Source: a virus
Lineage: Duplodnaviria; Caudoviricetes
DNA: 64,000 nucleotides
Direction: 5' to 3' (one strand)
IMG/VR virus record: IMGVR_UViG_3300008107_000634
Coordinates: 1,991-65,990 of that record
A program made the position numbers and the translations under genes. This document shows, piece by piece, positions 1-15,689 of this stretch (positions are counted from its first letter, which is position 1; each line of letters begins with the position of its first letter). The notes below the pieces were generated by a model that searched no databases, was not told the origin of the DNA, and saw only the letters and a list, made by a program, of their open reading frames with translations.

Positions 1-71
1 TTGCGTTGATTTTCAATAGGTTAGCGGCGGGCCGGGGCCGGGTCTAACCTCTTGAAAAAACAAGAAAACCC

Positions 72-536
72 AGGGAAGGTTGCAAGCGTTCCGCCTCCCT
101 CATTCGGAACCATTTTACCTGTCTAGCTCAGGTTAGAGGTGCGTGGTGCTAGTAGTTACTTGCCAAGAACCCAATTTATACGGACTTGAACCGTTTGGCT
201 CACAAGGTTTTCGAGGCCTTGCTTTCACTACATCCACACTTGCAATTTGGTGACGGTTCCGACTGGCTACGGATAACGCATCAAGGCTAATGCCAATCTA
301 GCGTCGCTGTGGATTATTGCTCCATGCCGTCATAAGCTCTATTTATAGCTTTCGACTGAGTGCAGATCTATAGTAGGGTTGCCGCCCTAGTAATTCGCCC
401 TCGGCAAAGGACCGCATTTTCGTGCGTCCACACTCATTCGGAAGCTATAAACTCAATTTCCGGCTTTGTTACACGGACCCCAGAGCAAAAGCCGGAAACT
501 CTTGGGCCGGTGGCGCATAAAGGAGCTGCCTTCCCT
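72..536 (-). ncRNA. Large structured non-coding RNA (~465 nt), unassigned
   Basis: Terminal helix 529-536/72-79 (8 bp). Perfect internal helices 457-467/488-498 and 442-451/342-351, plus 251-256/327-332, 261-267/292-298, several hairpins and a TTCAAGT T-loop arm at 180-194. No credible ORF; own promoter. Confidence 0.75.
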
Positions 537-547
537 ATCGTTTTTAT

Positions 548-576
548 ATTCTATCAAGCCTCTCGCAACTCGTCAA
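548..576 (-). promoter_or_regulatory. sigma70-type promoter TTGACG-17-TAGAAT driving the large ncRNA
   Basis: Near-consensus -35/-10 with 17-bp spacer just upstream of the RNA 5' helix. A second promoter TTGCAG-17-TATAAC lies at 623-651. Confidence 0.75.
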
Positions 577-731
577 CTTCTTTTTTCATCTTGCTGCACC
601 CTCGGTGCCGCTCACAGGTCTAGTTATACCCCTGAACCCTGCTCCCTGCAACAACTATTTTTTGCGTGAGATATCAATGGGTTAGCGGCAGGCCGGGGCC
701 GGGGGCTAACCCCTTGACGGGGTTAGCTTTT

Positions 732-1421
732 TTAGGCCGGAAACAGTTCCCGAGGCACATCTTTAAGCTTGACACGCTCCTGCACCTTTTTCCACGGACG
801 GCTATGGAACTGGCTAGGATGATCCACAATCGGCAGCTTCTTCTTGCGACGAAGAACCTTTTCGAGAATCACCCTTTCGATTTGCGTGTCAGGAAACGCA
901 ATATGTGCTTCCTCGAACGCGGGCTGGCCTGTTTCATAGCGATAAACGCTTTGCGCCGTTGTGCGGACATTACCGGACGGGCTGACTTCTGCCGTGTAAC
1001 GCTTCGGGCAGTTTGTTGCCCACGCATCCCAGATATCGAGCAAATGGACTCGATGGTCGAGGAAACGCTTCTCCAGCATCTTCCAGCTAGTTTCCGCGAG
1101 GACTCGAGTATCGAAGGCAGCATTATAAGCGCAGAGAATAGGCTTGTTGCGTCCATCCAGAATCTCCTTTAGATGTGTGTTGAACCTTTCGCGGATTTCT
1201 GCGAAGGTAAGAGGCATGATCTCCCGGTTATAAGCCATGTCCCAATAACGGGCGACCTTCGACTTGTAAAAGGGATTGTCGAGGGCGAGAACATCCTTAG
1301 CGATGAAGGAGCCCTCCCCATAGACCTTGCCAGCACGATCAAAGCTAGTCCAGCCAAAATCAAAGACTAGACCGTTGCGCTTAGTCGTTTCGCAGTCCAT
1401 GACAACAAACACGGTTTTCAT
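732..1421 (-). CDS. DEDDh (DnaQ-like) 3'-5' exonuclease
   Basis: Motifs DCET, AYNAAFD and H-x4-D (HIAFPD); leaderless promoter TTGACT-16-TAGAGT at 1429-1456. Confidence 0.85.
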   Translation of the reverse strand: MKTVFVVMDCETTKRNGLVFDFGWTSFDRAGKVYGEGSFIAKDVLALDNPFYKSKVARYWDMAYNREIMPLTFAEIRERFNTHLKEILDGRNKPILCAYNAAFDTRVLAETSWKMLEKRFLDHRVHLLDIWDAWATNCPKRYTAEVSPSGNVRTTAQSVYRYETGQPAFEEAHIAFPDTQIERVILEKVLRRKKKLPIVDHPSQFHSRPWKKVQERVKLKDVPRELFPA

Positions 1422-1532
1422 GAGTCACACTCTACCATAACCATCGGCCTAGTCAACTATTTTTTTCTGTGTAGTTTCAAGGGGTTAGTCGCGGGCCCGG
1501 GCTCCGCCCTAAGCCATTGACATGGCTTAGGA

Positions 1533-1952
1533 TTACGTGAGCCGATACTTCTCGCGGAGGTAGGCATAGCACACTTTGAAGATCTTATTGTGCTTGTGGG
1601 TATGCTTCTTCATAACATGATCCACCATCCAATGTGCCAGTTCGTGAAGCAGGAGAACCCGTAGAAGACGATTAGAATCTTTTGAGGTATAGTTACCGAT
1701 TACCGGGCTAGAGCTGAACTTACGGTATTCCTCATACACCGAACCCTCTGGGATAGTTACCAGAATCTCATTAGCCTCGGGATCATAAACCCCAATGCAG
1801 TCCTTATCATCCCCGGGCAGCCTGTTGCCGCTATAGACTAGCACCACCGGAGGATCTAGCTTGTCGGCGTCAAGGACAAAATCTTCGGCAATGCCACAGA
1901 CGACTTCGTCGCTGATACGCTGCATGGTTTTGGTAATATTCTTGAGAAGCAT
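1533..1952 (-). CDS. SprT-like zinc metallopeptidase
   Basis: HELAH (HExxH) followed by H-x-H-N-K-I-F. Confidence 0.65.
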   Translation of the reverse strand: MLLKNITKTMQRISDEVVCGIAEDFVLDADKLDPPVVLVYSGNRLPGDDKDCIGVYDPEANEILVTIPEGSVYEEYRKFSSSPVIGNYTSKDSNRLLRVLLLHELAHWMVDHVMKKHTHKHNKIFKVCYAYLREKYRLT

Positions 1953-2094
1953 TCCTTACCTTATCATATGCTCGGGCCTTTAGCAAGCCGAAAACTTCAT
2001 TAGATATCAATGGGTTAGCGCCGGGCCGGGGCTCCGCGTTAACGTGTTGAAATCCCGCGGTTTTTAGCCGCGGGATTTTCCCTAGGTTGGAAGA

Positions 2095-2409
2095 TCAGCC
2101 GAGCAGACCGATCAGGCGGCCAATGGCCTCCTTGGTGGCACCCTCGAAGCCCTTCGGGTCGAAACCCTTGGACTCCACGGTCAGGAGCAGCTCCTTCTTG
2201 GAAGGCCCCTCCTCCTTAGCCTGCTTGACAGGCTTGTCGGGCGCGATGTAGAGTCCATCGCGAACCAGCTTGGCGCGAACGCTGCGGACGCTCTTATCGA
2301 GAGTCTTGGCGATCTCATCCAGACCGGCGTTGCCCTTCTCGGCATACAGGGAACGAAGCAGGCTGACCTGCTCGTCGGTGTAGTTCACTTTCTTCTGTGC
2401 GTTGCTCAT
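2095..2409 (-). CDS. T5 A2-like helix-turn-helix DNA-binding protein
   Basis: LDEIAKTLDKSVRSVRAKLVRDGLYIAPDKP resembles my recollection of the T5 A2 core (LKEIAK...SVRSKL...Y..SDKP). Followed by the hairpin AATCCCGCGG/CCGCGGGATT at 2051-2078. Confidence 0.6.
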   Translation of the reverse strand: MSNAQKKVNYTDEQVSLLRSLYAEKGNAGLDEIAKTLDKSVRSVRAKLVRDGLYIAPDKPVKQAKEEGPSKKELLLTVESKGFDPKGFEGATKEAIGRLIGLLG

Positions 2410-2514
2410 GTTGTGAATATACCCTCAGCCCGATCCGTTGTCTAGAGAAAAGAAACAGCCAAAATCAATGGGTTAGCCGCGGGCCGGGGCCGGGCCCTAA
2501 GCCCTTGAAAAGGC

Positions 2515-2757
2515 TTAGGTTTTTGCCCCGTAGTATTGAACCAGTCCGGCCCTAGTCCAGTTCCCGGCAATGGTCTTAGACTCGTCGTCAGAATCCAGCG
2601 TGTATTCCTTAACCTTCCAGAAAAGGTTAGGGTTCTGGAAATGCTGCCTTTGGTAGCTCTCCGCCTGCTCTACGCTAGAGAAAAAAAGTCGCTCCGCGTG
2701 GTAAGCAAAATCCCTAACATCCTCGGCGTCGAGAATTAAGAGTTCGTAAATCTTCAT
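2515..2757 (-). CDS. hypothetical protein
   Basis: 80-aa ORF; its stop codon lies in the hairpin arm of the 2465 repeat. Confidence 0.65.
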   Translation of the reverse strand: MKIYELLILDAEDVRDFAYHAERLFFSSVEQAESYQRQHFQNPNLFWKVKEYTLDSDDESKTIAGNWTRAGLVQYYGAKT

Positions 2758-2763
2758 TTTATA

Positions 2764-3234
2764 TTATCCTTTCATGGCAGCAAGCCGCCTGTTATGGTGG
2801 GTGGAATTGATTACGCGAACCCCGAGCGCGCGGATAGCTTCGATTACCGACAGGTTATCGTCGAACATAACGACCGACCGGAACTTGTCGAGCAGCGGCT
2901 TGATAAGCCCCGTTTTAAGCGCAGCGTCGGGCGTGTCAAAGTCACCCTTGATGCGATGAAGCATGATATCGTGATCCAGCCGATGGAACTTGAGATAATG
3001 CAGATCCATATCGTGCATGGTCCGCGAGGTGCAAACCGCGACCGTAGTATCGGGATCGCGATTAGCAAGTCGCATGGTGCGGGCCAAAGGCAGAAGCGTA
3101 TCACGAAACACGGTCTTGCGCGTCTTTAGCGCAAGAAACGCATGGACATCGACGCTACCATCCGGCAGACGAGGCGTCCGATGGTCAGAGTCGATAACGG
3201 TGCCGTCGAGGTCAAAGATGAATAGCTTTTTCAT
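2764..3234 (-). CDS. HAD-family phosphatase (polynucleotide kinase 3'-phosphatase-like)
   Basis: FDLDGT motif I, CTSR motif II, K and FDDN motif IV. Confidence 0.85.
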   Translation of the reverse strand: MKKLFIFDLDGTVIDSDHRTPRLPDGSVDVHAFLALKTRKTVFRDTLLPLARTMRLANRDPDTTVAVCTSRTMHDMDLHYLKFHRLDHDIMLHRIKGDFDTPDAALKTGLIKPLLDKFRSVVMFDDNLSVIEAIRALGVRVINSTHHNRRLAAMKG

Positions 3235-3339
3235 GGGGGGATCATATCACAATGGGCAGAGACTGCAAGCACAAAAAAGATGTTAGATTTCAAGGGGTTA
3301 GCCGCGGGCCGGGGCCGGGCCCTAAGCCATTGAAATGGC

Positions 3340-3519
3340 TTAGGTTTCCTCTGCCTCTTCGTCGCTAATTTCCTCGGCCTCGCTCATTAGCCAACCCTCT
3401 GCTACTCCCATAGCAGCCTCATAGGCCACTTCCTCAGCCTTTTCAAGGCTTTCAACCTCGATTACTTCCTCTGTCATGTCAACATTAAACAAGCCGAACT
3501 TGATCCTAAACTTAGGCAT
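3340..3519 (-). CDS. small acidic protein (59 aa)
   Basis: Manually translated MPKFRIKFG...EEISDEEAEET; ATG overlaps the upstream stop; not in the ORF track. Confidence 0.6.
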   Translation of the reverse strand: MPKFRIKFGLFNVDMTEEVIEVESLEKAEEVAYEAAMGVAEGWLMSEAEEISDEEAEET

Positions 3520-3724
3520 CCTCGTCCTCCTTGCCCCACATCTCCTTCCACTCTTCCTCGGTGACTCCAGTCATAAGGAATTCACGCTGCGCAGCCGTCA
3601 GGTTAGGCATAGCGTTCTGAATCATTGCGCCACGCTGCTGCCACTCATAGAGCTGCTCGTGGGTAACGGGGATGTCGAGAGTCCGGGTGATGCCGGACCA
3701 TTGAGACTGTCGAGTAATAAACAT
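3512..3724 (-). CDS. conserved phage hypothetical protein (MFITRQSQWSG...REFLMTG)
   Basis: AAGGAG RBS just 3' of tRNA-Lys places the start at 3724. Confidence 0.7.
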   Translation of the reverse strand: MFITRQSQWSGITRTLDIPVTHEQLYEWQQRGAMIQNAMPNLTAAQREFLMTGVTEEEWKEMWGKEDEDA

Positions 3725-3743
3725 TTTTTTCTCCTTTAGATTT

Positions 3744-3819
3744 TGGTGGGTGCCGTGGGGCACGATCCCACAACCCTCGATTTAAAAGACCGATGCTCTA
3801 CCAATTGAGCTAGGCACCC
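3744..3819 (-). tRNA. tRNA-Lys(UUU)
   Basis: Cloverleaf: acceptor GGGTGCC/GGCACCC, loop CT-TTT-AA, encoded CCA; atypical T-loop ATCGTGC. Confidence 0.9.
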
Positions 3820-4040
3820 ATGTGTGCGTTGAGGATACCTGCAAGATACATGATACCCGCAACAATTTCAATGAGTAGCAGGGCATTTTCGCGCATCTTT
3901 ATGGCAGCGTAGCCCCACAAGACGCAGCTAGCAAATCCCAGCCACAGGTTCAGAGGGAACCAGACATTGGCGCTAGTCAAACCGATACCGGCGAGAACTA
4001 GCCCTGTCCCTGCCCACTTGATTAGCGCCATCCAATTCAT
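3810..4040 (-). CDS. small membrane protein (about 3 TM helices)
   Basis: Hydrophobic 76-aa ORF; TAG stop lies inside tRNA-Lys. Confidence 0.7.
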   Translation of the reverse strand: MNWMALIKWAGTGLVLAGIGLTSANVWFPLNLWLGFASCVLWGYAAIKMRENALLLIEIVAGIMYLAGILNAHMGA

Positions 4041-4193
4041 GGAAGGATCTTACCATAACGGAGAGTTAGATCAACAAGAAAATTTGCAAGAGATATCAAG
4101 GGGTTAGGGGCGGGCCGGGGCCCAGCCCTAAGTGGTTGAAATTGCTGCCTTCCTAACCCAGCGGGAGAACCTCGGGCAGCGAGGTTTTAGAAT

Positions 4194-4270
4194 TGGTGGG
4201 CCGAGAGGGACTTGAACCCCCGACCAGACCGTTATGAGCGGCCCGCTCTAACCAACTGAGCTATCAGCCC
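4194..4270 (-). tRNA. tRNA with CAU anticodon, most likely Ile2 (lysidine-type)
   Basis: Cloverleaf, loop CT-CAT-AA, C4-G69 and an Ile-type body, encoded CCA. Confidence 0.88.
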
Positions 4271-4460
4271 CCACATCTTCAAGCCACTTCTCGATCCTGA
4301 GAACACCGCCGAAGCAGTCGATAGCCTTGTGGGAGTTCACCCACTCCGCATTCCTGCCCAGCCAGTTTGTGGCAAACGTCTTAGCCTCTTCGAGGCTGTT
4401 GAACTTACCCAGAACGTGCATACCGTCCATGCTCTCCGTCGTGACTTCATACACATACAT
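4248..4460 (-). CDS. hypothetical protein
   Basis: 70 aa with upstream AGGT RBS; stop lies in the D-loop of the CAU tRNA. Confidence 0.6.
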   Translation of the reverse strand: MYVYEVTTESMDGMHVLGKFNSLEEAKTFATNWLGRNAEWVNSHKAIDCFGGVLRIEKWLEDVGADSSVG

Positions 4461-4531
4461 CTACCTTAACTCCTCTTGGGGTTGCAGTTTTATACTGGTG
4501 AATATCATACAGCCTTGCAGCCGTTTTTGCA

Positions 4532-4690
4532 CTAATCAATTTCATACTCCGTAGAGAAATCTTCCTCATATCGACCCGCATAGATAGCCTCGGCTCGAGA
4601 CTCATAGGGGCCAATCAAGTTTCCACTAGGGTCGAACCAATACCACCCATCCGGTCGAAGTATGACATCAGGGTCTAGTGCGTTTCTCAT
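4532..4690 (-). CDS. small hypothetical protein (52 aa)
   Basis: Manual translation MRNALDPDVILRPDGWYWFDPSG..IGPY; promoter-like sequence upstream. Confidence 0.5.
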   Translation of the reverse strand: MRNALDPDVILRPDGWYWFDPSGNLIGPYESRAEAIYAGRYEEDFSTEYEID

Positions 4691-4799
4691 CTTGTAAACA
4701 TATTATCAGGGTCCGAGGCAGATGTCTAGAAGAAAAAAGATGTTAGATGTCAACAGGTTAGCGGCGGGCCGGGGCCGGGCGCTAAGCCCTTGAAAGGAC

Positions 4800-5090
4800 T
4801 TAGCTATTTGCTCGCTCGACAGCCTCACGCGGAGCCCAAGGATATGCTGTCCCTCGGAGGAAGCTCTTGATCCGGCGGCGAGTCCACATCAACTCCTTGG
4901 CGCTCTGACGCAGAGAACGGATAGTAATCTGGGCGAACCTGTCATCCGGGAAACGACGAAGGATAGCCTTGGTCGCTCGGATGCAGTTAGAGACCTCGTT
5001 GTAGTCGTTACGCCACTTGTCACGCTTCCTAATCCATTGGGAGTGGAGGCGACGGGTTTCTGCGGAAGCAATCGGAAAATCATTCATCAT
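4800..5090 (-). CDS. basic hypothetical protein
   Basis: 96 aa; stop lies in the hairpin arm of the 4750 repeat. Confidence 0.65.
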   Translation of the reverse strand: MMNDFPIASAETRRLHSQWIRKRDKWRNDYNEVSNCIRATKAILRRFPDDRFAQITIRSLRQSAKELMWTRRRIKSFLRGTAYPWAPREAVERANS

Positions 5091-5313
5091 GTGTCTACCT
5101 TACAGGTCTAATTGTTACTTGTCAATCACTTTTCTACCCGGTCGTCTAAATACTACCAGAGGTAGGCTTTGACAAGTGGCTGGCCCTATGCCCGCCTAGA
5201 AAGAAGGATACCATAGGTAGGGGTAGGGTCAAGACCAGAAATTGTTGTGTGGTTTCAAAGGGTTAGCGACGGGCCGGGGCCGGGGGCTAACCCCTTGACG
5301 GGGTTAGCTTTTT

Positions 5314-6057
5314 TCACCCATTGGCGAGACCGAGATCCCGCAGTTCCTTCTTGGAAAGTTGCAGCTTGCCGCTCCTGTAGAGGTCACCGATCTTGTCATG
5401 CCACTTGTCGGTGAAGATATCCTGTCGGGAGTAGGGGATGATGATGGTAACGATCTTGTCCCTCTCCATGCGGCGGATCTCCGTTCCGGTGACCTCGCCC
5501 CAAAGCACCTCATACCAGAGTCCGTCAACCTTTCGATATTCCGTTCCATCCTTGGCGACATGGATCTTGCTGGCCTCCTCGGCCGCCTTCTGATCCTTCC
5601 AGACCTTCCTCTCCTGCCGACGGGTCAGCTTCATCTTATTGCGAAGGAGGACGCCGGTAACCGGATGCACATACAGTCCGATGAAGCTGTTCTTCAGCAG
5701 GATGGGGGAGCGATACTTGTGGTAGATGACGACCTCGCCATCGACCATCGAGGTGCGGATCGCAACGAAGTCCTCGACATGATCCCTAACGTGCTGCTGC
5801 ACGGTGTTGTCGGCACGCAGGTTCTCGCAGATCTCGCTGTAAACCTTGTCCCAGAGCCGCCCGACACGACTCTCGATGAACCGGCGCAGCGGCGACAGAT
5901 TCTCGTTCAGCTCCTTGCCGCCCCAGTTACGGACATGGGGCGCGCGCATCCCCTCCTTGCTCGGAAGCAGATCGTGATCGGCCTTCCGACCCTTTCGAGT
6001 GCCGTAACCGCCTCGCCGGGGACGCTCCACCAGAACCTTGTTCATGTCTTTACGCAT
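5314..6057 (-). CDS. conserved hypothetical protein (MRKDMNKVLVERPRRGG...)
   Basis: 247 aa with GGAG RBS; fills the cassette between repeats 5255 and 6135. Confidence 0.75.
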   Translation of the reverse strand: MRKDMNKVLVERPRRGGYGTRKGRKADHDLLPSKEGMRAPHVRNWGGKELNENLSPLRRFIESRVGRLWDKVYSEICENLRADNTVQQHVRDHVEDFVAIRTSMVDGEVVIYHKYRSPILLKNSFIGLYVHPVTGVLLRNKMKLTRRQERKVWKDQKAAEEASKIHVAKDGTEYRKVDGLWYEVLWGEVTGTEIRRMERDKIVTIIIPYSRQDIFTDKWHDKIGDLYRSGKLQLSKKELRDLGLANG

Positions 6058-6341
6058 GGTTGCTCCTTCAAAACTTTATGCTGTGATCATATGCAGGAAC
6101 TAAGGACTTGTCCAGAAAAAATAAACGTGAGATTTCAATAGGTTAGCGACGGGCCGGGGCCGGGGGCTAACCCCTTGACGGGGTTAGCTTTTTTATCGCC
6201 TCCCTCGCATTAGAAGACGATTGTAGTCGCGGGCCGCGCGCTCGAACTCCCGGTCATAATGCGCCTTGCGATCAGGATCGTCCGACTGATTCGCCAGCGC
6301 CTTGTAGTGCTCGGCCACCTTGCGCTTCATTTCCAGTTCGC

Positions 6342-6538
6342 TCACTTTACTGCCCTCCAGAAGGAATTGAGAAACTCACTTGCCCTATCGAACTGCCCGG
6401 ACTCATAAAGGCTCTGCGCCTTATTGAAAACCCCGAACAGGTAGTCGAGACGCGGAGTCTCGAGTAGCGGATCGGCCATGAGATCCAGAAGGTCGTGTGC
6501 CATCTGAAGCTCGTCTCGCAGGGTTTCACGCGTCATAT
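6342..6538 (-). CDS. hypothetical protein (MTRETLRDELQ...)
   Basis: Part of a small operon; GGAG RBS in the preceding gene. Confidence 0.55.
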
Positions 6539-6696
6539 TCCTGCACCTCCTTGATGCTCTCGGCATTGATGTTCCACGCAAACAGGATATCCTGAACGCG
6601 CTCGCAGGCTGCACGGAAATCCTGCGCGAACACCATCTGCTTGTCCGTCGCGAGGGAGACGGGGTCCTTTTCGATCACAAACACAAACCGCTTCAT
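6526..6696 (-). CDS. small hypothetical protein (MKRFVFVIEKD...)
   Basis: GGAG RBS; promoter TTGCAT-16-TAAGAT upstream. Confidence 0.55.
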   Translation of the reverse strand: MKRFVFVIEKDPVSLATDKQMVFAQDFRAACERVQDILFAWNINAESIKEVQEYDA

Positions 6697-6832
6697 TTCG
6701 TTTCTCCGTTGTTGATAGGTGTATCTTACTCTAATCCGCGCACCATGCAAGCATTATTTTTGCGTTGAGTTTCAGAGGGTTAGCGGCGGGCCGGGGCCGG
6801 GGGCTAACCCCTTGACGGGGTTAGCGATTTCG

Positions 6833-7057
6833 CTACATGGCTTGTGGCGTGTTCACCATCGCCCACTCTAGCAACTCGATGCGATTACGCAGCTTCACCT
6901 CCAGCGCTGCGCTCACGCCCAGGAGGCGAGCCTGCTCCTTCACCTCAGCGCGGAGTCGCTTGATCTCCTGCGCCATATTCATCTCCGCTGCGGTGGGGCC
7001 TGCGTTCTCGGAGTCTCGTAGAACATCAACTTGAAATTCCCGGTAGATGTCGCTCAT
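6833..7057 (-). CDS. coiled-coil hypothetical protein (MSDIYREFQ...)
   Basis: GGAGG RBS before the inferred start. Confidence 0.55.
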   Translation of the reverse strand: MSDIYREFQVDVLRDSENAGPTAAEMNMAQEIKRLRAEVKEQARLLGVSAALEVKLRNRIELLEWAMVNTPQAM

Positions 7058-7209
7058 GGCTCGGCCTCCTTCTCCGCAACCTCGAACGCGTGCGAGCAAT
7101 ACTTACCGCAATAATCATCCTCAGACAAGCAAAGGCCTACATAAATCCCCGCAAGGAAAACAAGTACCAATACCCACAATATCGCCAACCCGATTGCAAC
7201 GATCATGGC

Positions 7210-7392
7210 TTAGTTCTCCTCCTCTAGACGCCCGTCGAGGGCAGGCTCGTTTTCCTCCCAGTAGGTAAAGAGGCTATTCATAGCCGCATTGACCTCTGCG
7301 AGCGTCTGGAACGTCACGCCGCGAGGACGATAGCCAAACGTGTCCTTGTAGAAGTCGGAGTATTCTGCCACAGCCTGCTCGAGATCCGTCAT
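7210..7392 (-). CDS. conserved small phage protein (YSDFYKDTFGYRPRG)
   Basis: AAGGAG RBS; promoter TTGACG-16-TAAATT at 7418-7445. Confidence 0.7.
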   Translation of the reverse strand: MTDLEQAVAEYSDFYKDTFGYRPRGVTFQTLAEVNAAMNSLFTYWEENEPALDGRLEEEN

Positions 7393-7516
7393 TGCTTGTC
7401 TCCTTTGTTGAGTTCTGAATTTATCATGTTCATCCTATGCGTCAACCACTAATTTTGAGCGAGATATCAATGGGTTAGCGGCGGGCCGGGGCCCGGGCCT
7501 AAGCCCTTGAAAGGGC

Positions 7517-7786
7517 TTAGGTTCCGTCGTCCACATCTCCCGAGTAGCCGTAGTCCTCGTCGGTTCCCCAGCCAGCCGAAGTCATCGCCGAGTCATGGTC
7601 ATCGTCCTTCGACTCATACATCTCGTCATCTTCGTCGTAATCGGACTCGAGGAACTCGTTACTCTTCGCCATTTCGGTGACCTCATCTTCCGACATCCAC
7701 AGGAGGCAGGCCTGGATCAGGGCGTCCTTGTCGATCGTCCCTTCCGCCACCATTTCGAGAAGCAAGGTCGTGTTCTTGCGAGGCAT
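7517..7786 (-). CDS. protein with an acidic C-terminus (DSAMTSAGWGTDEDYG)
   Basis: GGGAG RBS; stop lies in the hairpin arm of the 7467 repeat. Confidence 0.65.
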   Translation of the reverse strand: MPRKNTTLLLEMVAEGTIDKDALIQACLLWMSEDEVTEMAKSNEFLESDYDEDDEMYESKDDDHDSAMTSAGWGTDEDYGYSGDVDDGT

Positions 7787-7918
7787 ATCGTTCTCCCTTG
7801 TTGATGAGCACACTCTACACTATCCGCGCAGAGTTGCAACAACTATTTTTTCGTTGAATTTCAAAGGGTTAGCCGCTGGCTGGGGCTCCGCCCTAAGCCC
7901 TTGATATGGCTTAGTTTT

Positions 7919-7994
7919 TGGTAGAGCGTAGGGGATTCGAACCCCTGTCAACGGAGTGAAGTTCCGCTATCCTAGGCCACTAGACGAACGCTCC
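7919..7994 (-). tRNA. tRNA-Glu(UUC) with non-canonical anticodon loop
   Basis: Glu-type body (GTCTAGTGGCCTAGGA...AGGGGTTCGAATCCCCT), stem GCGGA/TCCGT, loop AC-TTC-AC, encoded CCA. Confidence 0.85.
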
Positions 7995-8003
7995 ATAAGT
8001 ATT

Positions 8004-8181
8004 GGGGGCCTCACGTTTGCAACCGTGAGGCCTAACCGACGTTCCCCCAGGCAGGACTAGGCCTTCCATATGAAGGGTACTACCTGCATTTCCACAGTTT
8101 ACAGCGTCTTACTTAGACGACTGGGGCACCAGTTGCGAAGACGTCTTCGCCGGGGTCGGCAGGGCTTTCGCCCGCCCAAAT
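8004..8181 (-). ncRNA. Structured RNA, copy B of a tandem pair (unassigned)
   Basis: Shares identical 44-nt and 36-nt ends with copy A; internal stems show compensatory changes. Confidence 0.7.
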
Positions 8182-8186
8182 GTAGT

Positions 8187-8333
8187 GGGGGCCTCACGTT
8201 TGCAACCGTGAGGCCTAACCGACGTTCCCCTAGACAGGCCTTGCACCTGCATTTCCGCCATCTGCGGCGTCCTTACTTGGACGACTAGGCACCGGCTTTC
8301 GCCGGGGTCGGCAGGGCTTTCGCCCGCCCAAAT
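8187..8333 (-). ncRNA. Structured RNA, copy A of a tandem pair (unassigned)
   Basis: GAAA-capped hairpins, closing stem CCGAC-CCCC/GGGG-AAC-GTCGG, four-way junction; promoter at about 8355-8386. Confidence 0.7.
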
Positions 8334-8457
8334 TCGTTTCTCCGTCGTTGATAGGTGTATCTTACCCGAAATCTTGCCTCATGCAACAACTATTTTTTCG
8401 TTGAGTTTCAATAGGTTAGCCGCGGGCCGGGGCCGGGCGCTAAGCCCTTGAAAGGGC

Positions 8458-8595
8458 TTAGCTTTCCTCCAAGGAGAGCAGGTGAAAGAAATAGTCGGCC
8501 TGCCTGTCCAGCTCGGCCTCCTCGGCCTCCTGAGAGTCCAGCCACTCCTCGTAACCCTGCCAGAGGGTGGGATCGTTGACGGCTTCCTCGAACAT
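8458..8595 (-). CDS. small acidic protein (45 aa)
   Basis: Manual translation MFEEAVNDPTLWQGYEEWLDSQEAEEAELD...; AAGGAGG RBS; stop lies in the 8408 repeat arm. Confidence 0.6.
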   Translation of the reverse strand: MFEEAVNDPTLWQGYEEWLDSQEAEEAELDRQADYFFHLLSLEES

Positions 8596-8861
8596 CGCGA
8601 CCTCCTTGGTGAGAATGGGAACTTAGCAGAATACGCTAGAGAGTCAACCACTTTTCTACCTAGTCGTCGAATTACTACCAGTCGTTGAATTACTACCGCA
8701 GGTAGCATACCCCTCAACTGACCTCTTCGCCCGCCTCCCAGGAACCAAGGGTATCAGGGATCGCCTAAATGGCAACCTCAGAAATTATCGTGAGATATCA
8801 ATGGGTTAGCCGGGGGCCGGGGCCCTGTGCTAAGCCTTTGAAAAGGCTTAGCTTTTTAGGG

Positions 8862-9062
8862 TCAGTCTGACCAACCCCCGAGGCTATCGCGACCCCCCTC
8901 GTCGCAGTCGGTGAGGTAGGCGTGCAGGTTGTCCCACGCCTCGACCGCTGCCTCCACGTCGGTCAGCTCGGCCATCACCTCGGCGGAGGGAGCCTCGCCG
9001 AAGGCGCGCGTGTGGAACGCGACGAAGCGCGCGACGTGGTATTCAAGATCAAGATCAACCAT
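8862..9062 (-). CDS. small acidic hypothetical protein
   Basis: AGGAG RBS; occupies one cassette. Confidence 0.65.
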   Translation of the reverse strand: MVDLDLEYHVARFVAFHTRAFGEAPSAEVMAELTDVEAAVEAWDNLHAYLTDCDEGGRDSLGGWSD

Positions 9063-9258
9063 CAGTCATCTCCTATGTGGGTATTCAAAACTAGCAGAGC
9101 CAACACGCAAGTCAACCTTTATTTTTGCGTGCGATATCAACGGGTTAGCCGGGGGCCGGGGCCCGCCGCCAAGTGCTTGATATCTAACGATAATTTTTTC
9201 TCTTGCAAAGTCTAGGAAGGCAGTCTAGTCTAGCGATAGTCAATCAAGGGAGTCCTCC

Positions 9259-9456
9259 ATGAACCTCGAAGCCCACAACCTCACCCTCAACCCCGTCCCC
9301 GTCCACTCCGCGCGCGGGTGCTGGTCGTGGCACTTCACCTGCGGCAGCCGTCTAGCCTTCGTCCTCGACGTCCCCGCCCGCACCATGGAGCAGAGTCGGA
9401 GGGTGGCCATCCTCCGTGCCATCAGCATTGCGGAGGACGAGAACCTACGCAACTAA
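9259..9456 (+). CDS. hypothetical protein (plus-strand cassette)
   Basis: GGGAG RBS; promoter TTGCAA-17-TAGTCT at about 9204-9232. Confidence 0.55.
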   Translation: MNLEAHNLTLNPVPVHSARGCWSWHFTCGSRLAFVLDVPARTMEQSRRVAILRAISIAEDENLRN

Positions 9457-9534
9457 ATTTGCGTGCGATATCAATAGGTTAGCCGGGGGCCGGGGCCCGG
9501 TGCTAAGCCTTTGAAAAGGCTTAGCTTTTTAGGG

Positions 9535-9753
9535 TCAGCGGAGGAATTTTGTGACCGGGTGCGACTTGTTCTCCCCCGTGTTCGCGTTCAGGACAACCTG
9601 TCGCGTGCGAACCCACTCCAGCTCGCTCGCGTATTTTCCGTAGATCGGGTGCGTGAAAACCTTCTCGAGCACCTTCTCGACAGGCTCCGGAGTCAGCGAC
9701 GTATAGATCATCCCGCGACCCAGATTGACTTCGTGAAGATTCGCAACAACCAT
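9535..9753 (-). CDS. hypothetical protein
   Basis: 72 aa, GGGAG RBS, one cassette. Confidence 0.6.
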   Translation of the reverse strand: MVVANLHEVNLGRGMIYTSLTPEPVEKVLEKVFTHPIYGKYASELEWVRTRQVVLNANTGENKSHPVTKFLR

Positions 9754-9896
9754 TTTTCGTCTCCCTTGTTGATGGCGGCACTATATAGAAACTTGCGATC
9801 CCTGCAAGCATTATTTTTTGTGTGCGATATCAAAGGGTTAGCCGGGGGCCGGGGCCCGCCCCTAACCCTTTGAAAGGGCTAGGGATTTTGTGGGCC

Positions 9897-10140
9897 TTAC
9901 TTCCCGAAGTGCTCGACCAAGCGCTGCAGCAGATCCGAGGACTCCCAGTCCGAAGGGCCGTTGGCCATCGGGCCGGGATTGAAGGGCGACGTGCTGAGCA
10001 CGCTGTACAGGTTGGAACGCTGCCCCGAGTGGTATTCGCTCGCAAACCAATAGATGGTTTCCTCACGAGTCCACTGGTCGACGTCGGGGACCATTTCGTC
10101 GATGACGTTGTCGAGAGTTTCGCGATTCGGATCTTGCATG
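9897..10140 (-). CDS. hypothetical protein (MQDPNRETLD...)
   Basis: GGGAG RBS before the inferred start; one cassette. Confidence 0.55.
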
Positions 10141-10304
10141 GGTATCTCCCTGTTGATGGACTCACTATACAGCAGTTTCGCGTTAGCGCAAGCATTATTT
10201 TTTGCGTTGAGTTTCAAGGGGTTAGCCGGGGGCCGGGGCCCGCCCCTAACCCTTTGAATTGTCTCGGTTTTTTCGGCGGTAGAGCTTCTTCATTTTGGAC
10301 CCTT

Positions 10305-10514
10305 TCACGCTGGGAGGAGGCCATAGGCGCGAGCGGCATAGGCAGCGACCCAACGCTCACGCTCGGAGAGGTCACGGAACCTGCGAGGACCGAAAGGCTG
10401 CCCCACTTCGAGGAGACGCTCGCCCACGCGCGAGAGTTCATTGGCCCACGCAAGGTCTTCGCAGTTTTGCTCTGCATCATTGAGCATCAGGCGGGCGAGG
10501 TGCTTGAGGTCCAT
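10305..10514 (-). CDS. hypothetical protein (MDLKHLARLML...)
   Basis: GAGGAG RBS; promoter shared with the 12.5-13.5 kb cassettes. Confidence 0.6.
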   Translation of the reverse strand: MDLKHLARLMLNDAEQNCEDLAWANELSRVGERLLEVGQPFGPRRFRDLSERERWVAAYAARAYGLLPA

Positions 10515-10714
10515 GTCTGTTCTCCTCAGTTGATACATATAATATAGGGCATCGCACCCCAGTGGTCAACAGGATTCTTTCGTCTAGATGCAAAAAAGAT
10601 GTGTTTAAGATCAATGGGTTAGCCGCGGGCCGGGGCTCCGCCCTAACCTATTGAATTAGCACTGATTTTCTACCTCATAGAATTACTACCACAGGTAGTA
10701 GTTTTACTACCACC

Positions 10715-10867
10715 TCACCTATCATAGGCGCGATCGAGTCGATCTTCCTCGAGCCGGTTGGCAGCGCGCCAGCCCCGCTGCCAGCTAGCAGCGTCCTCTT
10801 CCGTCATGTTCTCGGGGCGAAGCTTGCCGCTATAGTAGGCTTCATATCCGGCATTGTAGTAGTCCAT
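10715..10867 (-). CDS. Rmf/CrpP-like small protein (50 aa)
   Basis: Manual translation MDYYNAGYEAYYSG...AASWQRGWRAA; pattern Y-x-x-G-Y-x-A...W-x-x-G-W. Confidence 0.5.
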   Translation of the reverse strand: MDYYNAGYEAYYSGKLRPENMTEEDAASWQRGWRAANRLEEDRLDRAYDR

Positions 10868-11238
10868 GCGTCGACTCCTGTTTTGAACGTCCCCTTATAT
10901 AGGGCCGAGTCTCGTTTTATGCAAGATCTTTCTTATGCAAGAAGCGCATGGCCCTATGCATCCTAGCTCTCAAAAAAAGCGTTATAGATCAATGGGTTAG
11001 CCGCGGGCCGGGGCCCGTCGCTAAGTAGTTGATTCTAAACGATAATTTTCGCGTCTCGCGCCCGATCCGCTTGCAAGAACCGTGCCAAGTCGCGACTCGG
11101 CCGAATCGGCGGGGCTAGACCCTAGCATGACCGCCGACTCTGCAGAAAAAAACGCATCGCGCGAAAATAATTCCGTTGTATCTTTAGAGGCGACGCCCTA
11201 TATATCTCCCATCGCAACGGACAACAACGGAGTCTCCC

Positions 11239-11490
11239 ATGTCCTTCGACCCCGCCGCCACCCTCGCCATCCTCGCCGCCGGTCCCGCGCTCGTGACGTT
11301 CACGAAGAAGGACGGCACGGACCGGACGATGCGCTGCACGCGCTCGCCGGACCTGCTCCCGCCCGGCGCGGGCAAGGGGACGGACACGCGGAAGGATCAG
11401 GGCAACCTGATCGCCGTCTTCGACCTCGACGCTCAGGCGTGGAAGGGTTTCTTCTTCGACAGGATGGTGGCGATCCAGCCGATCGCCTAA
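11239..11490 (+). CDS. WYL_2-like (Sm-like beta-barrel) phage protein, copy 1
   Basis: VTFTKKDGTDRTMRCT...VFDLDAQAWKGF pattern. Confidence 0.7.
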   Translation: MSFDPAATLAILAAGPALVTFTKKDGTDRTMRCTRSPDLLPPGAGKGTDTRKDQGNLIAVFDLDAQAWKGFFFDRMVAIQPIA

Positions 11491-11818
11491 CCTGTCAAGG
11501 GAAAAATGCGCCACTATGGCGCATTTTTTTTGTCTAAAGCGTTGGCACAGTTCTTGCAAGGCCGGCTGTGGTTAGGGGCAGAAAAAAGCCAACGATATCA
11601 ATGGGTTAGCCACGGGCCCGGCCCCGCCGCTAAGTATTTGATTCTAAACGATAATTTTCGCGTCTCGCGCCCGATCCGCTTGCAAGAACCGTGCCAAGTC
11701 GCGACTCGGCCGAATCGGCGGGGCTAGACCCTAGCATGACCGCCGACTCTGATTTTTGTTGAACGGAATCGGGCGCATCCCTATCTTATGCATAGTCAAC
11801 AACGCAACGGAGTCGAAC

Positions 11819-12004
11819 ATGGATAGCCTGAACCTCATTTCTCAGATCACCTACGACGAGATCAGGAACGATCCCGCGCTCTGCGGTCGAGTCATGGCCT
11901 ATCTGTCCATAGCGGTGCATGGACTCCCGGAGGATGGATTCACGCACAAGTGGCTCGCAGCCGAGTTTGCAAAGGAAGTCGCGAAGATCAAGGAGTCGCG
12001 CTGA
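11819..12004 (+). CDS. small helical hypothetical protein (paralogue family with 16463 and 16688)
   Basis: CAACGGAGTCGAAC-ATG leader; promoter TTGAAC-17-TATCTT at 11759-11787. Confidence 0.65.
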   Translation: MDSLNLISQITYDEIRNDPALCGRVMAYLSIAVHGLPEDGFTHKWLAAEFAKEVAKIKESR

Positions 12005-12090
12005 TGGATTATCTTATTCTCGGCCTCTTCGCGATCATCGGGCCTTATCTGGCCGTCTGGCTTTCGGTCTGGCTAGGCCCACGCGACTAG
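12004..12090 (+). CDS. 28-aa hydrophobic peptide
   Basis: TGATG coupling; MDYLILGLFAIIGPYLAVWLSVWLGPRD. Confidence 0.4.
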   Translation: MDYLILGLFAIIGPYLAVWLSVWLGPRD

Positions 12091-12265
12091 CCGATTCGCA
12101 AAGGCGAGGCAAGAAAAAAATCTTCGTGCCATGCGATTTTTTTCTTGCCTCTAGCAGGCGACTCGCTTAGTCTGCTAGTGTGGGAATCCGACCTAACGTG
12201 TCCAGCGGGTTGGCACGATTCTTGCAAGCCACGCAGGCCCTAGACGGATAAAAAAGCCAACGATA
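12088..12265 (+). repeat. ~180-bp non-coding block duplicated at about 15686-15865 (hairpin, sigma70 promoter, sigma54 box)
   Basis: Near-identical sequence in both places. Confidence 0.85.
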
Positions 12266-12326
12266 TCAATGGGTTAGCCCCGGGCCGGGGCCCCGCCCTA
12301 AGCCCTTGAAAAGGCTTAGGAAATTG

Positions 12327-12527
12327 TCAAGGGTCTATTTTGCCAAAATCCTTCACCCGAACCACAAGAGTGGAAGCAGCTATCATAAAACCCTCCTTGA
12401 AATGAGCGAACACGCTTCCATCTGGGTGACCAGACAGTATCACCCCCTGCTTGTCGCACATATCGCGCAGCTTCTCAACGAAGTCGCGACGGGACTTGGG
12501 GGTAGACTTCTTAGTGGTCTTGGCCAT
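12327..12527 (-). CDS. hypothetical protein (KKSTPKSR family), paralogue of 13307
   Basis: Shared N-terminus TKKSTPKSR..FV.KLR..C.K. Confidence 0.7.
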   Translation of the reverse strand: MAKTTKKSTPKSRRDFVEKLRDMCDKQGVILSGHPDGSVFAHFKEGFMIAASTLVVRVKDFGKIDP

Positions 12528-12675
12528 CTCTGTCTCCTCGGTTGATATCTACACCATAGGGCATCGCCTCCCAGAGGTCAACCTAATTCTTTATGTTTAA
12601 AATCAATGGGTTAGCCACGGGCCGGGGCCCAGCCCTAAGCCCTTGAAAAGGCTTAGGATTTTCTGGGGGCCTAGT

Positions 12676-12855
12676 TCAGTCCTTCAGGATGTCCTGAAGA
12701 ATCCACAGGTCCGACCGGACGTCGGACATGCTGGTGTAGTGGTCCTGGACACCATTAAGCATCGCGTCGGCGAGGTTGCGCGCCTGCGCCAGCTTGTCGC
12801 GAAGGCTGGCGATCTCCGCAATGAGGTCGGCGGTCTGGGTGGTGGCGTCGGTCAT
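12676..12855 (-). CDS. small coiled-coil protein (59 aa, MTDATTQTADL...)
   Basis: Manual translation; GGGAG RBS; not in the ORF track. Confidence 0.55.
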   Translation of the reverse strand: MTDATTQTADLIAEIASLRDKLAQARNLADAMLNGVQDHYTSMSDVRSDLWILQDILKD

Positions 12856-13017
12856 CTAGAACTCCCTTGTTAATGTTTACAATATAGGGTATCGCACCCT
12901 AGCGGTCAACCTAATTCTTTAGCCCGGTGCAAAAAAGATGTGTTTAAAATCAATGGGTTAGCCACGGGCCGGGGCCCAGCCCTAAGCCCTTGAAAAGGCT
13001 TAGGGTTTTCTGGGGGC

Positions 13018-13275
13018 CTACATTCCAGTAGCGTCGGAGAACCATTTCCAGTCCTTTTCCGACTTCTGCTCCAGACGCTCGACCTCGCGTTCCAGCATCT
13101 GGACGCGGGCGCGAAGGCGGTTGATTTCGGCCACCAGAGGGCTCACATCCTCGACCTTTACATAATCGCCCTCTTCGAGCGGCACCAAATAATCATCATA
13201 ATCTCCGGCGAAATCCCACCGCTGGGGCATCTGGACGGTGGTGGCTTCGGTCATCGCTGTCTCCTTGGTGATCAT
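13018..13275 (-). CDS. hypothetical protein with C-terminal coiled coil
   Basis: 85 aa; a later start at MTEATT with AAGGAG RBS is possible. Confidence 0.6.
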   Translation of the reverse strand: MITKETAMTEATTVQMPQRWDFAGDYDDYLVPLEEGDYVKVEDVSPLVAEINRLRARVQMLEREVERLEQKSEKDWKWFSDATGM

Positions 13276-13306
13276 GGGGTCAGTATAGGCGGCTTCCGGG
13301 ACAAAG

Positions 13307-13495
13307 TCAAGTGCCTATCTCAGGCCACAAGCGGACAAACTGTACCGCGTCCTCCCCTCCATCCAGGAAATGGGCAATCGCGTTCCCATCCTGGTCGCCA
13401 AACAGGAGCACGTTATGCTTGGCGCACAGGGCGCGAAGCTTGGCGACGAAGGCCGCGCGGGACTTGGGGGTCGATTTCTTGGTGGCGTCGGTCAT
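13307..13495 (-). CDS. hypothetical protein (KKSTPKSR family)
   Basis: GAGGAG RBS before MTDATKK. Confidence 0.65.
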   Translation of the reverse strand: MTDATKKSTPKSRAAFVAKLRALCAKHNVLLFGDQDGNAIAHFLDGGEDAVQFVRLWPEIGT

Positions 13496-13644
13496 CGCTG
13501 TCTCCTCTGTTGATGTCTGCACCATAGGGTATCGCGCCCTAGCGGTCAACCTAATTTTTTGGCCCTACGCAAAAAAGATGCGTTTAAAATCAATGGGTTA
13601 GCCACGGGCCGGGGCCGGGCTCTAACCTATTGAATTAGCACTAA

Positions 13645-13730
13645 TTTTCTACCAGTCATCATATTACTACCATTCGTTGAATTACTACCACTGGTAGTAG
13701 TTTTACTACCAGTCGTTGAATTACTACCAT
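13645..13730. repeat. TTACTACC(AGTCGTTGAA) repeat cluster; related clusters at 5130-5166, 8652-8706, 10666-10712
   Basis: Direct repeats with an ~18-bp unit plus a CTACC-N3-GGTAG palindrome. Confidence 0.75.
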
Positions 13731-13854
13731 TTAGCCTAATTTAGGCCTAAAAACACCCCCGTAAGTGCTTGATTCTAAAGGCTTTTTTTGGCCTTCCGAT
13801 ACCGATTCTGCCCCTTTTGCTGGTCGTTTCGCCCAGCCGGGCGTTGCCCGGAAG

Positions 13855-13995
13855 CCACACCTGTGGCAAAAGAGCAACTGTGGCAAATTTGCCACACCGT
13901 GATTTTCATGCAACTGTGGCTGGTTTGTCACGCTGTGGCCTTTCTGCAACTGTGGCCAAGATGTCACAGCGTGGCCGCCTTGCCACGCTGTGACA
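13855..13995. repeat. cluster of TGTGGC/GCCACA/GTCAC(A/G) direct and inverted repeats
   Basis: About ten occurrences in 140 bp of non-coding DNA. Confidence 0.7.
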
Positions 13996-14003
13996 TTTTT
14001 GCA

Positions 14004-14378
14004 TCACCCCTCGAGTCTGGCAAGTTGCCATTGCATTGCGGCAATCTTGCGGCGCACCGAGTCGGCATCGCCCGACTCGCCGATCGCCGTGTTACATTCA
14101 AAGCAAAGCACCGCAAGGTTTCCCGTCACATACCCTAGCTCAGGGCGAATCTTGTGGAGGCTAGGCGAAAGGGTATGCGACTCCTTGTCGCCAAAGGCGA
14201 GGAAGCGGTCGCAATGCTCGCAAACCATGGACCGGCCCTTGCGGCGCAGGACGGAGTCAATGGCGTGCGCTAGCGACTCCGAGTCCAGACAAGGAATCGC
14301 CTTGCCCTTGTCGCGCGCGACTCGCACGCGCGACAGGGTATTGTTTCGGATATTGCGAGCATCGCGGGAGGCTTTCAT
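14004..14378 (-). CDS. HNH-like endonuclease
   Basis: CEHC...PSLHKI...GYVTGNLAVLCFECN; TAATG coupling to the upstream ORF gives the start at 14378. Confidence 0.6.
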   Translation of the reverse strand: MKASRDARNIRNNTLSRVRVARDKGKAIPCLDSESLAHAIDSVLRRKGRSMVCEHCDRFLAFGDKESHTLSPSLHKIRPELGYVTGNLAVLCFECNTAIGESGDADSVRRKIAAMQWQLARLEG

Positions 14379-14572
14379 TAGCGGGACTCCGTGGCGAGGG
14401 TAAGGGCGCGGCGAGCGGCCGCATCGCGGCTCTTCCGCATAGTGCGCTCCGCGACGTCGATATCGCAGAACCATGCACCGTTGCGCATGAAACGCCATGT
14501 CCAAGAGCCGCGCGCGACGTAGACGGGCGACTCCTGCATGGTGATTCCGAGGCTGGCGAGGGTAGACGACAT
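14378..14572 (-). CDS. hypothetical protein (MSSTLASLG...)
   Basis: CAACGGAG leader; promoter TTGATT-17-TATCTT. Confidence 0.55.
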   Translation of the reverse strand: MSSTLASLGITMQESPVYVARGSWTWRFMRNGAWFCDIDVAERTMRKSRDAAARRALTLATESR

Positions 14573-15082
14573 GAGCGACTCCGTTGCGTTGTGGACTATG
14601 CATAAGATAGGGAGTCGCCATCCTAGAATCAACGGACTCGAGCTATCTATTTTTGCATGGCTGCCATGCGTATTTTGCAATGGACTCTTGCGGGCCTATC
14701 AGGCAATGTGCTAGTGTGGAGATCCGACTCGGCGCGTCCGGCGGGTTGGCACGATTCTTGCAAGGCTGCGGGGTTGGCACGATTCTTGCAAGCCGCGCAG
14801 GCCATAGATGGATAAATTGTCGTTTAGAATCAATGGGTTAGACGTGGGGCCGGCCCCGCCGCTAAGTATTTGATTCTAAACGATAATTTCCGCATTTCGC
14901 GCCAGAATCGCTTGCAAGAACCGTGCCAAGTCGCGACTCGGCCGAATCGGTGGGGCGCTACCCTAGCATGGCCGCCGACTTTGCGTCAACAGAAAAAAAC
15001 GCATCGCGCGAAAATTTTTTCGTTGAACGGAATCGGGCGCATCCCTATCTTATGCATAGTCCACAACGCAACGGAGTCGACC

Positions 15083-15307
15083 ATGAAATACATCGCCGAG
15101 TGCCGCTTCCCCGCCCACCCGAATTCCAGTCTCGCGCGTGACGGTTTCACGTCGTGGGGCGAGCGGTGGACGATCACCGCCGACTCCGTCGAGTCGGCTC
15201 GCGCCAAGGTTCTCGCGCGCTTCGCGGATCCGATGCGTCCTTCCTATCGCGAAGGCTGGGTCGAGTCGCTGGAAACCTCCGAATCGTGGGACGCCCGTCG
15301 CCGCTGA
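15083..15307 (+). CDS. hypothetical protein (MKYIAECRF...)
   Basis: CAACGGAG leader; same promoter as 11819. Confidence 0.6.
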   Translation: MKYIAECRFPAHPNSSLARDGFTSWGERWTITADSVESARAKVLARFADPMRPSYREGWVESLETSESWDARRR

Positions 15308-15357
15308 CGGGCTGGCGCGAATCGCCTAGCATCACAACGCAAACAACGGAGTCGCCC

Positions 15358-15468
15358 ATGCTTCCCATCTTCAATATCTCGACTCGCCGCGTCGGCGGTA
15401 TCCGCTTCCTGAAAATCGGGCGCTTCACGTTTTCGTTTTGCGTCGCGCGTTCCTATCGCCCTCTGTAA
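15358..15468 (+). CDS. 36-aa basic peptide (GGIRFLKIGRFTFSFCV)
   Basis: CAACGCAAACAACGGAG leader. Confidence 0.5.
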   Translation: MLPIFNISTRRVGGIRFLKIGRFTFSFCVARSYRPL

Positions 15469-15479
15469 GGAGTCCCGCA

Positions 15480-15689
15480 ATGAATCATCCCATCTTGGAT
15501 GCCGTCTATCTGACTCGCCGCTTCGCCGAGTCCTTCAATAACGGCCAGCCTTTCCCGCAAGCCGCCGCTATCGGCGCGCTGCGTGCGCTTGTGGAAAGCC
15601 TGATCCTAGAGGTTGACTCGGAGACTCGCGAGGCTGTCATGGCAAGCATGAATCGTGAAATCGAGCGCAACCAGAATCGGCGCGCCTAG
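15480..15689 (+). CDS. hypothetical protein (MNHPILDAV...)
   Basis: AAGGAG RBS. Confidence 0.55.
   Translation: MNHPILDAVYLTRRFAESFNNGQPFPQAAAIGALRALVESLILEVDSETREAVMASMNREIERNQNRRA

Follow-up and report, generated by a model that had tools for sequence, protein, structure and literature searches.

Four tandem structured RNA modules in a phage cassette, one of them a candidate RNA family of phage tRNA arrays

What does a phage encode in a segment of about 465 nt that holds no open reading frame (ORF) of note? The segment lies on the minus strand of the 64,000-nucleotide stretch of DNA analysed here, which we call the window. An earlier note had described it as a single ornate non-coding RNA, transcribed from its own promoter, carried as the cargo of a cassette, and belonging either to a class such as GOLLD and ROOL or to a new one. 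The cargo part of this description agrees with the surroundings of the locus, the phage being one with tRNA genes. Small minus-strand cassettes with a 44-bp repeat between them make up the first 16 kb of the window, and the RNA locus occupies one such repeat-bounded cassette (Table 1). At least 22 copies of this repeat are present over window positions 13-15909, on one strand only. The segment is also as poor in ORFs as had been claimed; the longest minus-strand ORFs across 60-600 in the ORF listing are 34 aa, and the protein-coding reading was rejected.

Table 1 Features of the RNA locus and its borders. Positions are those of the window; minus-strand features are mostly given in the direction of transcription.
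Feature	Position	Strand	Description
44-bp boundary repeat, upstream of the RNA cassette	674..717		Repeat families D1 and D2; regex match
Sigma-70-type promoter	576-548	minus	-35 TTGACG, 17-nt spacer, extended -10 TGnTAGAAT; A-tract just upstream
RNA locus	72-536	minus	No ORF of note; between 44-bp repeat copies 674-717 and 13-55
M1, 5' leader	541-453	minus	Hairpin P0 (530-525/516-512) and H-type pseudoknot
M1 helix S1	508-504 with 480-476, inside the S2 loop	minus	Complementarity scoring
M1 helix S2, 11 bp	498-488/467-457	minus	Alignment A3
M2, variable multi-hairpin domain	452-346	minus	Closed by 451-442/351-342; three hairpins
M3, tRNA-like cloverleaf	331-248	minus	5-bp acceptor-like stem (251-256/327-332), three arms, discriminator A/G, CCA at 250-248
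M4, multibranched, ~165 nt	243-81	minus	Closed by 6-bp P1 (243-238/86-81)
M4 hairpin	221-203	minus	Covarying, conserved; CAAGG/CCTTG arm
M4 T-loop-like hairpin	194-180	minus	TTCAAGT
M4 hairpin H4	132-118	minus	Palindromic apical loop in the family
M4 hairpin H5	110-87	minus	Covaries
3' tail	54..79	minus	CCTTCCCT able to pair with the 5' end 536-529; then U-rich tract
44-bp boundary repeat, downstream of the RNA cassette	13..55		Repeat families and regex match

A gene for an exonuclease-like protein of 229 aa (732-1421, minus strand) precedes the RNA locus, and we took as relatives those metagenome contigs that encode an exonuclease-like protein at 75-98% identity (L111-L119; L191, L192, L194-L196 and L198). 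Homologous RNA sequence was found just downstream of this gene in those contigs, bounded by the same 44-bp element as in the window. In three of them (L191, L192 and L194) the gene callers left the equivalent stretch of 0.8-1.3 kb empty. In relatives with an exonuclease at most 64% identical, the RNA was absent and coding genes stood in its place. No match was obtained by blastn of window 1-760 against GenBank phages. The stretch was also absent from the nearest IMG/VR record (G001) and from 46 related viral records reached through the capsid gene, which are fragments that mostly do not span the cassette region. A scan for the 11-mer that occurs twice returned two repetitive coding regions, which were dismissed as chance matches.

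The near-consensus promoter of the earlier note was recovered by the promoter scan, with 10 of 12 consensus matches plus the TG extension, and is kept in 9 of 11 homologous loci. Upstream of it on the minus strand, at 618-664, there is a second, weaker promoter-like pair (TTGCAG, 17 nt, TATAAC) that falls below the thresholds of the scan, together with a small hairpin; most relatives retain both. The RNA strand is the minus strand, as indicated by the orientation of the main promoter, the CCA encoded in module M3, the same-strand tRNAs of relatives and the conserved G-U pairs. The latter are many and would be A-C mismatches if read on the plus strand. The folding-energy z-score of the locus relative to shuffles was -2.7 for the minus strand and -4.8 for the plus strand. 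Because both strands fold better than shuffles, folding energy decides neither function nor strand, and on its own it is weak evidence for an RNA.

An Rfam cmscan, the first comparison proposed in the earlier note, gave no match for window 1-760 at E<=10, including the models of GOLLD, ROOL, tRNA, tmRNA, RNase P and group I introns. Readings of the locus as a tmRNA, an RNase P RNA or a group I intron were rejected, since none of these families matched the stretch at this threshold. A tmRNA, standard or permuted, was found neither by ARAGORN nor by the Rfam models in the window stretch and its relatives. The GOLLD and ROOL models had no match in window 1-760, in the relatives or in a distant member of the M4 family described below, and in these searches the model of the bacterial Y RNA-like YrlA, a class defined by a Ro60-binding stem together with a tRNA-like domain, had none on modules M1 to M4. 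Membership in GOLLD or ROOL was thus not borne out and, because no Rfam match was obtained at E<=10, the other branch, a new class outside the curated families, was the right one. At the gathering threshold, Rfam gave three tRNAs in the window, all of them outside the RNA locus.

The locus is four modules in tandem (M1 to M4), each with its own closing helix, and not one ornate fold. Covariation among homologues, which the earlier note had proposed to look for, is present in the form of compensatory changes in every module; no covariation was seen between modules. A structured non-coding RNA with its own promoter is genuine, and most of the helices that had been listed are real and covary in relatives. 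The single 465-nt fold did not survive the comparison: its modules close separately and are reshuffled in relatives, and only M4 is widespread.

For the leader M1, 12 copies were aligned (alignment A3). Helix S2, one of the helices listed earlier (457-467/488-498), survives three double changes in copy 1 of contig L192 and one in copies 2 and 3. The two strands of S1 are complementary throughout, with differing bases, in each of the 8 distinct types that the script scored, and a reading of alignment A3 adds L119, in which S1 pairs too and had been missed by the pattern of the script. No junction nucleotide between the helices varies, the M1 of relatives scores 76-109 bits with model R2, and all copies but one sit 8-50 nt past the start site. 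Two other folds were rejected. One was an RNAalifold alternative in which the S1 strand pairs to the 5' GGG; those Gs are missing from L192 copy 3, the S1 strand of which is still complementary to the loop. The other was an HDV-like fold, for which there is no room for P3 or P4. HDV-like theta ribozymes occur beside phage tRNAs, on their 3' side. M1 resembles them in being a compact pseudoknot with invariant junctions and a phage-tRNA neighbour, and in having S1 and S2 nested in the order of P1 and P2, but it is located 5' of the tRNA, has no room for P3, L3, P1.1 or P4, and is without an Rfam ribozyme match. M1 and M3 have their homologues within a narrow clade, so that the invariant nucleotides of both modules partly reflect shared ancestry.

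The next domain, M2, is variable. It is missing from L116, L118, L198 and L191, swapped for unrelated sequence in L111, L113, L119 and L192, and retained with stem extensions in L194. Four of the helices listed earlier belong here (442-451/342-351, 431-435/358-362 and the hairpins 409-429 and 374-389). All four can be formed by the sequence and appear in its MFE fold and, because they are located in the variable domain, they are testable by L194 alone.

M3 folds as a cloverleaf. Of the 21 pairs in the RNAalifold structure, 6 show compensatory changes, and a single cell is broken; 99.5% of cells pair, compared to 24-45% with the partners slid. All 10 sequences share the CCA, preceded by A or G. 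M3 therefore presents the four-way cloverleaf, the discriminator and the 3' CCA of a tRNA, as tRNA-like handles of the mascRNA type and viral tRNA-like ends do, and it occupies the position of a tRNA in an array. Unlike a tRNA, its acceptor-like stem is 5 bp and not 7 bp, its long second arm carries a 3-4-nt apical loop in the place of the 7-nt anticodon loop, and its third arm of 4 bp ends in an invariant 8-nt loop that lacks the T-loop consensus. No tRNA was called on M3 by ARAGORN or by the Rfam tRNA model, in window 1-760 or in the relatives; true tRNAs nearby score 43-73 bits. Because of the short acceptor-like stem, the 4-bp third arm and the missing T-loop consensus, recognition of M3 by RNase P is plausible yet unproven. 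The earlier note was right that the locus contains a tRNA-like element, but placed it at 180-221, a region that is part of M4 and no tRNA mimic with an end, and listed M3 only as two helices. The acceptor-like stem 251-256/327-332 holds, with two covarying pairs. Helix 261-267/292-298 pairs in the window and may make a loop-loop contact, but outside the window just the GGC/GCC core remains.

Of the 36 predicted pairs of M4, 13 covary among the close relatives. We searched IMG/VR contigs with a degenerate 28-nt pattern taken from the conserved centre of M4 and found the module in 42 further contigs, one copy per locus; all 42 match the M4 profile near full length, with E from 6e-8 to 9e-52. The family was defined by the helices P1-P3, H4 and H5 and by conserved junction strings, over about 160-190 nt. 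Window 249-76 falls within it, with E 1.2e-35 against a profile of 49 sequences. In an alignment of 37 distinct sequences (A6), 97.1% of the cells of the M4 core pair, compared to 83.1% in shuffles and 29-61% in slid controls, and 17 of the 23 core pairs covary; 0 of 500 shuffles come up to this. The junctions are invariant. Hairpin 87-110 of the earlier note covaries, and the CAAGG/CCTTG arm at 203-221, which that note also listed, is a conserved covarying hairpin, the loop of which takes either of two conserved alternatives that divide the family into two subfamilies. The TTCAAGT hairpin at 180-194 does exist, but it is present in 11 of 40 distinct members, confined to one subfamily, and replaced in the rest.

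Neither M1, M3 nor the T-loop region was matched when viral contigs were scanned, and for M1 and M3 the same was true across one genome per prokaryote species. With models R1 and R2, no additional copy of M3 or M1 turned up in the window, among 99 related loci or in the 42 M4 loci. The T4-type capsid protein Gp23 is encoded by 4 of the 5 large M4 contigs tested and the capsid of the window by none of them, so the M4 family crosses phage lineages; it is common to T4-like phages with large tRNA arrays and to an unrelated phage of about 100 kb. The distant M4 member matched no Rfam family, and no GenBank phage by blastn. Compared with Rfam and with GenBank phages, M4 would be an undescribed family. 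Thousands of unnamed IMG/VR motifs appear in a survey of 10,006 candidate viral RNAs (PMC10690425), and M4 may be among them.

Of 32 distinct versions of hairpin H4, 28 carry a palindrome of 6-8 nt in the apical loop. Its position is constant but its sequence is not, with more than 10 variants, and the L210 copy, for instance, has a 6-nt GC palindrome; in shuffles the count is 9.4, with any position in the region allowed. The loop of the window itself has only 4-nt palindromes. Because a contiguous palindrome cannot pair within one loop, and because palindromy is kept while the letters change, symmetric loop-loop pairing between two molecules would be the expected interaction. The palindrome thus suggests that M4 may dimerise through kissing loops.

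Each of the 42 M4 loci is a tRNA array; the median number of tRNAs is 19.5 and the maximum 41. A same-strand tRNA ends at most 20 nt upstream of M4 in 32 of these loci, usually at 2-4 nt, and the next tRNA starts at most 30 nt downstream in 29, usually at 10-13 nt. In the window, M4 begins 4 nt past the CCA of M3. Gaps of 81-93 nt upstream of M4 are filled by an uncalled tRNA-like element ending in ACCA or by another conserved module. The tRNA-like element lies between tRNA-Asp and M4 (L217:3480-3558; L222:6431-6512 and L224:9750-9830, both minus) and has no D-arm, a 6-bp T-stem, a 7-nt T-like loop and no ARAGORN call. The other module, which is also structured, precedes M4 in L215:8112-8204 and L229:4140-4232 and follows it in L116:~2030-2095 and L191:~4250-4330. 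Thus tRNA islands seem to hold several small-RNA families.

M1 is associated with tRNA genes as well. In L192, copy 2 of M1 ends on the first base of tRNA-Ala, with which a run of four tRNAs begins (Ala, Glu, Thr, Ser), and copy 3 together with M3 adjoins tRNA-Ile. In L119 the order is eight tRNAs, M4, promoter, M1, M2 and a tRNA. The position of M1 shortly past the start site and directly before tRNAs or M3, and the invariance of its junction nucleotides while the stems covary, speak for a purely cis-acting leader or spacer system, in which M1 protects long untranslated transcripts of the tRNA type or aids their processing (by antitermination or folding) and the other modules have no function in trans. 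We consider this quite improbable. M4 is conserved without M1 across unrelated lineages, R2 having detected no M1 in the 42 M4 loci, and the array of eight tRNAs in L119 is also without M1. Moreover, the invariant junctions and the covarying palindromic loop of M4 are hard to explain for a passive spacer.

Close relatives differ by the gain, loss, exchange and reordering of modules. M4 is located upstream of the promoter in L119, L192 has three copies of M1, and L111 has an extra tRNA-like insert following M3. In this insert of about 118 nt (L111:1722-1839), an acceptor-like stem of 7 bp is combined with a canonical T-arm and G-CCA, and about 70 nt lie in between; the insert is absent from L113, and ARAGORN and Rfam give no call on it. 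In L194 the neighbouring gene is 76% identical to that of the window and the RNA modules are 88-93% identical, whereas in L113 the relation is reversed, with 97% for the gene and 64-85% for the modules. The conservation of the RNA exceeds that of the flanking gene in L194 and L118. Because the identities of RNA and neighbouring gene are discordant, we take the RNA cassette to move independently and to be under selection. Exchange of RNA cassettes independently of neighbouring genes was observed among the relatives, and the architecture is one in which RNA genes are shuffled as units between phages.

These comparisons also bear on the reading of the locus as functionless, decaying remnants, either of tRNA pseudogenes or of an eroded protein gene in an empty cassette. 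There is no ORF, and M3 and parts of M4 are tRNA-like with no tRNA called, as such remnants would be. However, pairing is preserved by compensatory changes in all modules, the RNA is conserved above the flanking gene in the two relatives just named, the strong promoter is retained and M4 is present at full length in 42 other contigs, so that we find decay hardly credible.

Phage tRNA islands hold enigmatic RNAs, and among the closest parallels to the present locus are rnaC and rnaD of T4 (stable RNA species 1 and 2). There, tRNA-Arg is followed by rnaD and then by rnaC, at distances of 1-6 nt; the last bases of rnaD are ACC, with an A next in the genome, and a T-arm forms the end of rnaC. Like M4, these are small RNAs arranged head-to-tail with same-strand tRNAs in a phage tRNA cluster, and M4 adjoins tRNA genes as they do. 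The lengths and folds differ, and the window adds the pseudoknot leader and a promoter of its own. The M4 profile showed no similarity to rnaC or rnaD when compared with T4 66-76 kb (nhmmer --max), the best E of 0.27 being on a tRNA. To our knowledge, the function of rnaC and rnaD has not been known for decades.

We consider it somewhat probable that the locus represents an operon of phage small RNAs, of the tRNA-island type, in which a precursor is cut into stable small RNAs like rnaC and rnaD. RNase P and 3' trimming have established roles in tRNA operons, and because of these roles we infer cleavage of the precursor at M3 and, in other phages, at the flanking tRNAs. Host RNA polymerase would start at the promoter and produce a minus-strand precursor of about 490 nt containing the four self-contained structured modules in tandem. 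M3 with its encoded N-CCA end would serve as the processing handle: cleavage by RNase P just 5' of M3 would set free the pseudoknotted leader M1-M2, and 3' trimming to CCA would free M4 as the stable cargo RNA of about 165 nt with paired ends. In T4-like environmental phages, the same enzymes would excise M4 from between two tRNAs. M4 probably pairs with a second copy through its palindromic apical loop, and its target in trans is probably the tRNA or translation machinery, which tRNA-rich phages of this kind remodel.

Some features of the window run counter to this operon model. The fold of the earlier note was closed by AGGGAAGG/CCTTCCCT (529-536/72-79), and this 8-bp helix between the 5' and 3' ends, beside a U-tract, is indeed present in the window, where it would tie the whole transcript together. 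The 3' tail corresponds to the 3' half of a canonical terminator present in L198 and L118, and the terminator scan found no local terminator hairpin at 54-79 in the window. The order M1-M2-M3-M4 is moreover unchanged in L194. All this is in favour of a single integrated RNA of about 490 nt, similar to GOLLD and closed by the terminal helix. GOLLD has a variable 5' region and a conserved 3' region, sometimes with tRNAs in the linker (PMC12286853), and the variable 5' part, tRNA-like middle and conserved 3' domain of the window give an analogous layout. GOLLD and ROOL are RNAs of phages and prophages, often close to tRNA islands, that form RNA-only cages or homo-oligomers (PMC12286853); the present RNA is likewise phage-borne, structured and near tRNAs, and the covarying palindromic loop of M4 suggests self-association. 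Nevertheless we regard the integrated RNA as unlikely. The terminal helix is absent from L194, L113, L111 and L116, each module has its own closing helix and none covaries with another, M4 stands alone between tRNAs in the 42 contigs and M1 directly before tRNAs in L192. The conserved unit is about 165 nt here as opposed to about 580-800 nt in GOLLD and ROOL, the modules occur separately, and the Rfam models of the two classes do not match at E<=10.

The locus adds three structured RNA elements outside all curated families, namely the M4 family embedded in tRNA arrays and two clade-specific elements. M4 is small enough for direct biochemistry. A more specific proposal, which we put forward tentatively and ourselves hold rather doubtful, is that M4 represents a new class of self-associating phage RNAs of about 165 nt (kissing-loop homodimers or higher oligomers) that are excised from tRNA arrays and act on tRNAs or the translation machinery, for example by serving as decoys for host defences that target tRNAs, or as ribozymes in processing, with M1 as a new pseudoknotted processing or ribozyme element heading phage tRNA transcripts.

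Several minor observations were made in the arrays. T4-like arrays contain tRNAs with a CTA anticodon, labelled Pyl by ARAGORN (L213:4321-4395, L223:1747-1821 and L248:5464-5538), which are possible amber suppressors; the one in L248 begins 28 nt past M4. Many of the arrays contain long tRNA-Ile(TAT) calls, of 91-94 nt. Just past one of 94 nt, at L192:4938-5102, a group I intron model matched weakly, with 26.7 bits and E 0.006, which is below the gathering threshold. In the window, a tandemly duplicated ORF-poor stretch at 8004-8333 (minus strand; repeat families D5, D11 and D13) is located just upstream of tRNA-Glu 7919-7994 on the same strand, and may be another structured leader of a tRNA transcript.
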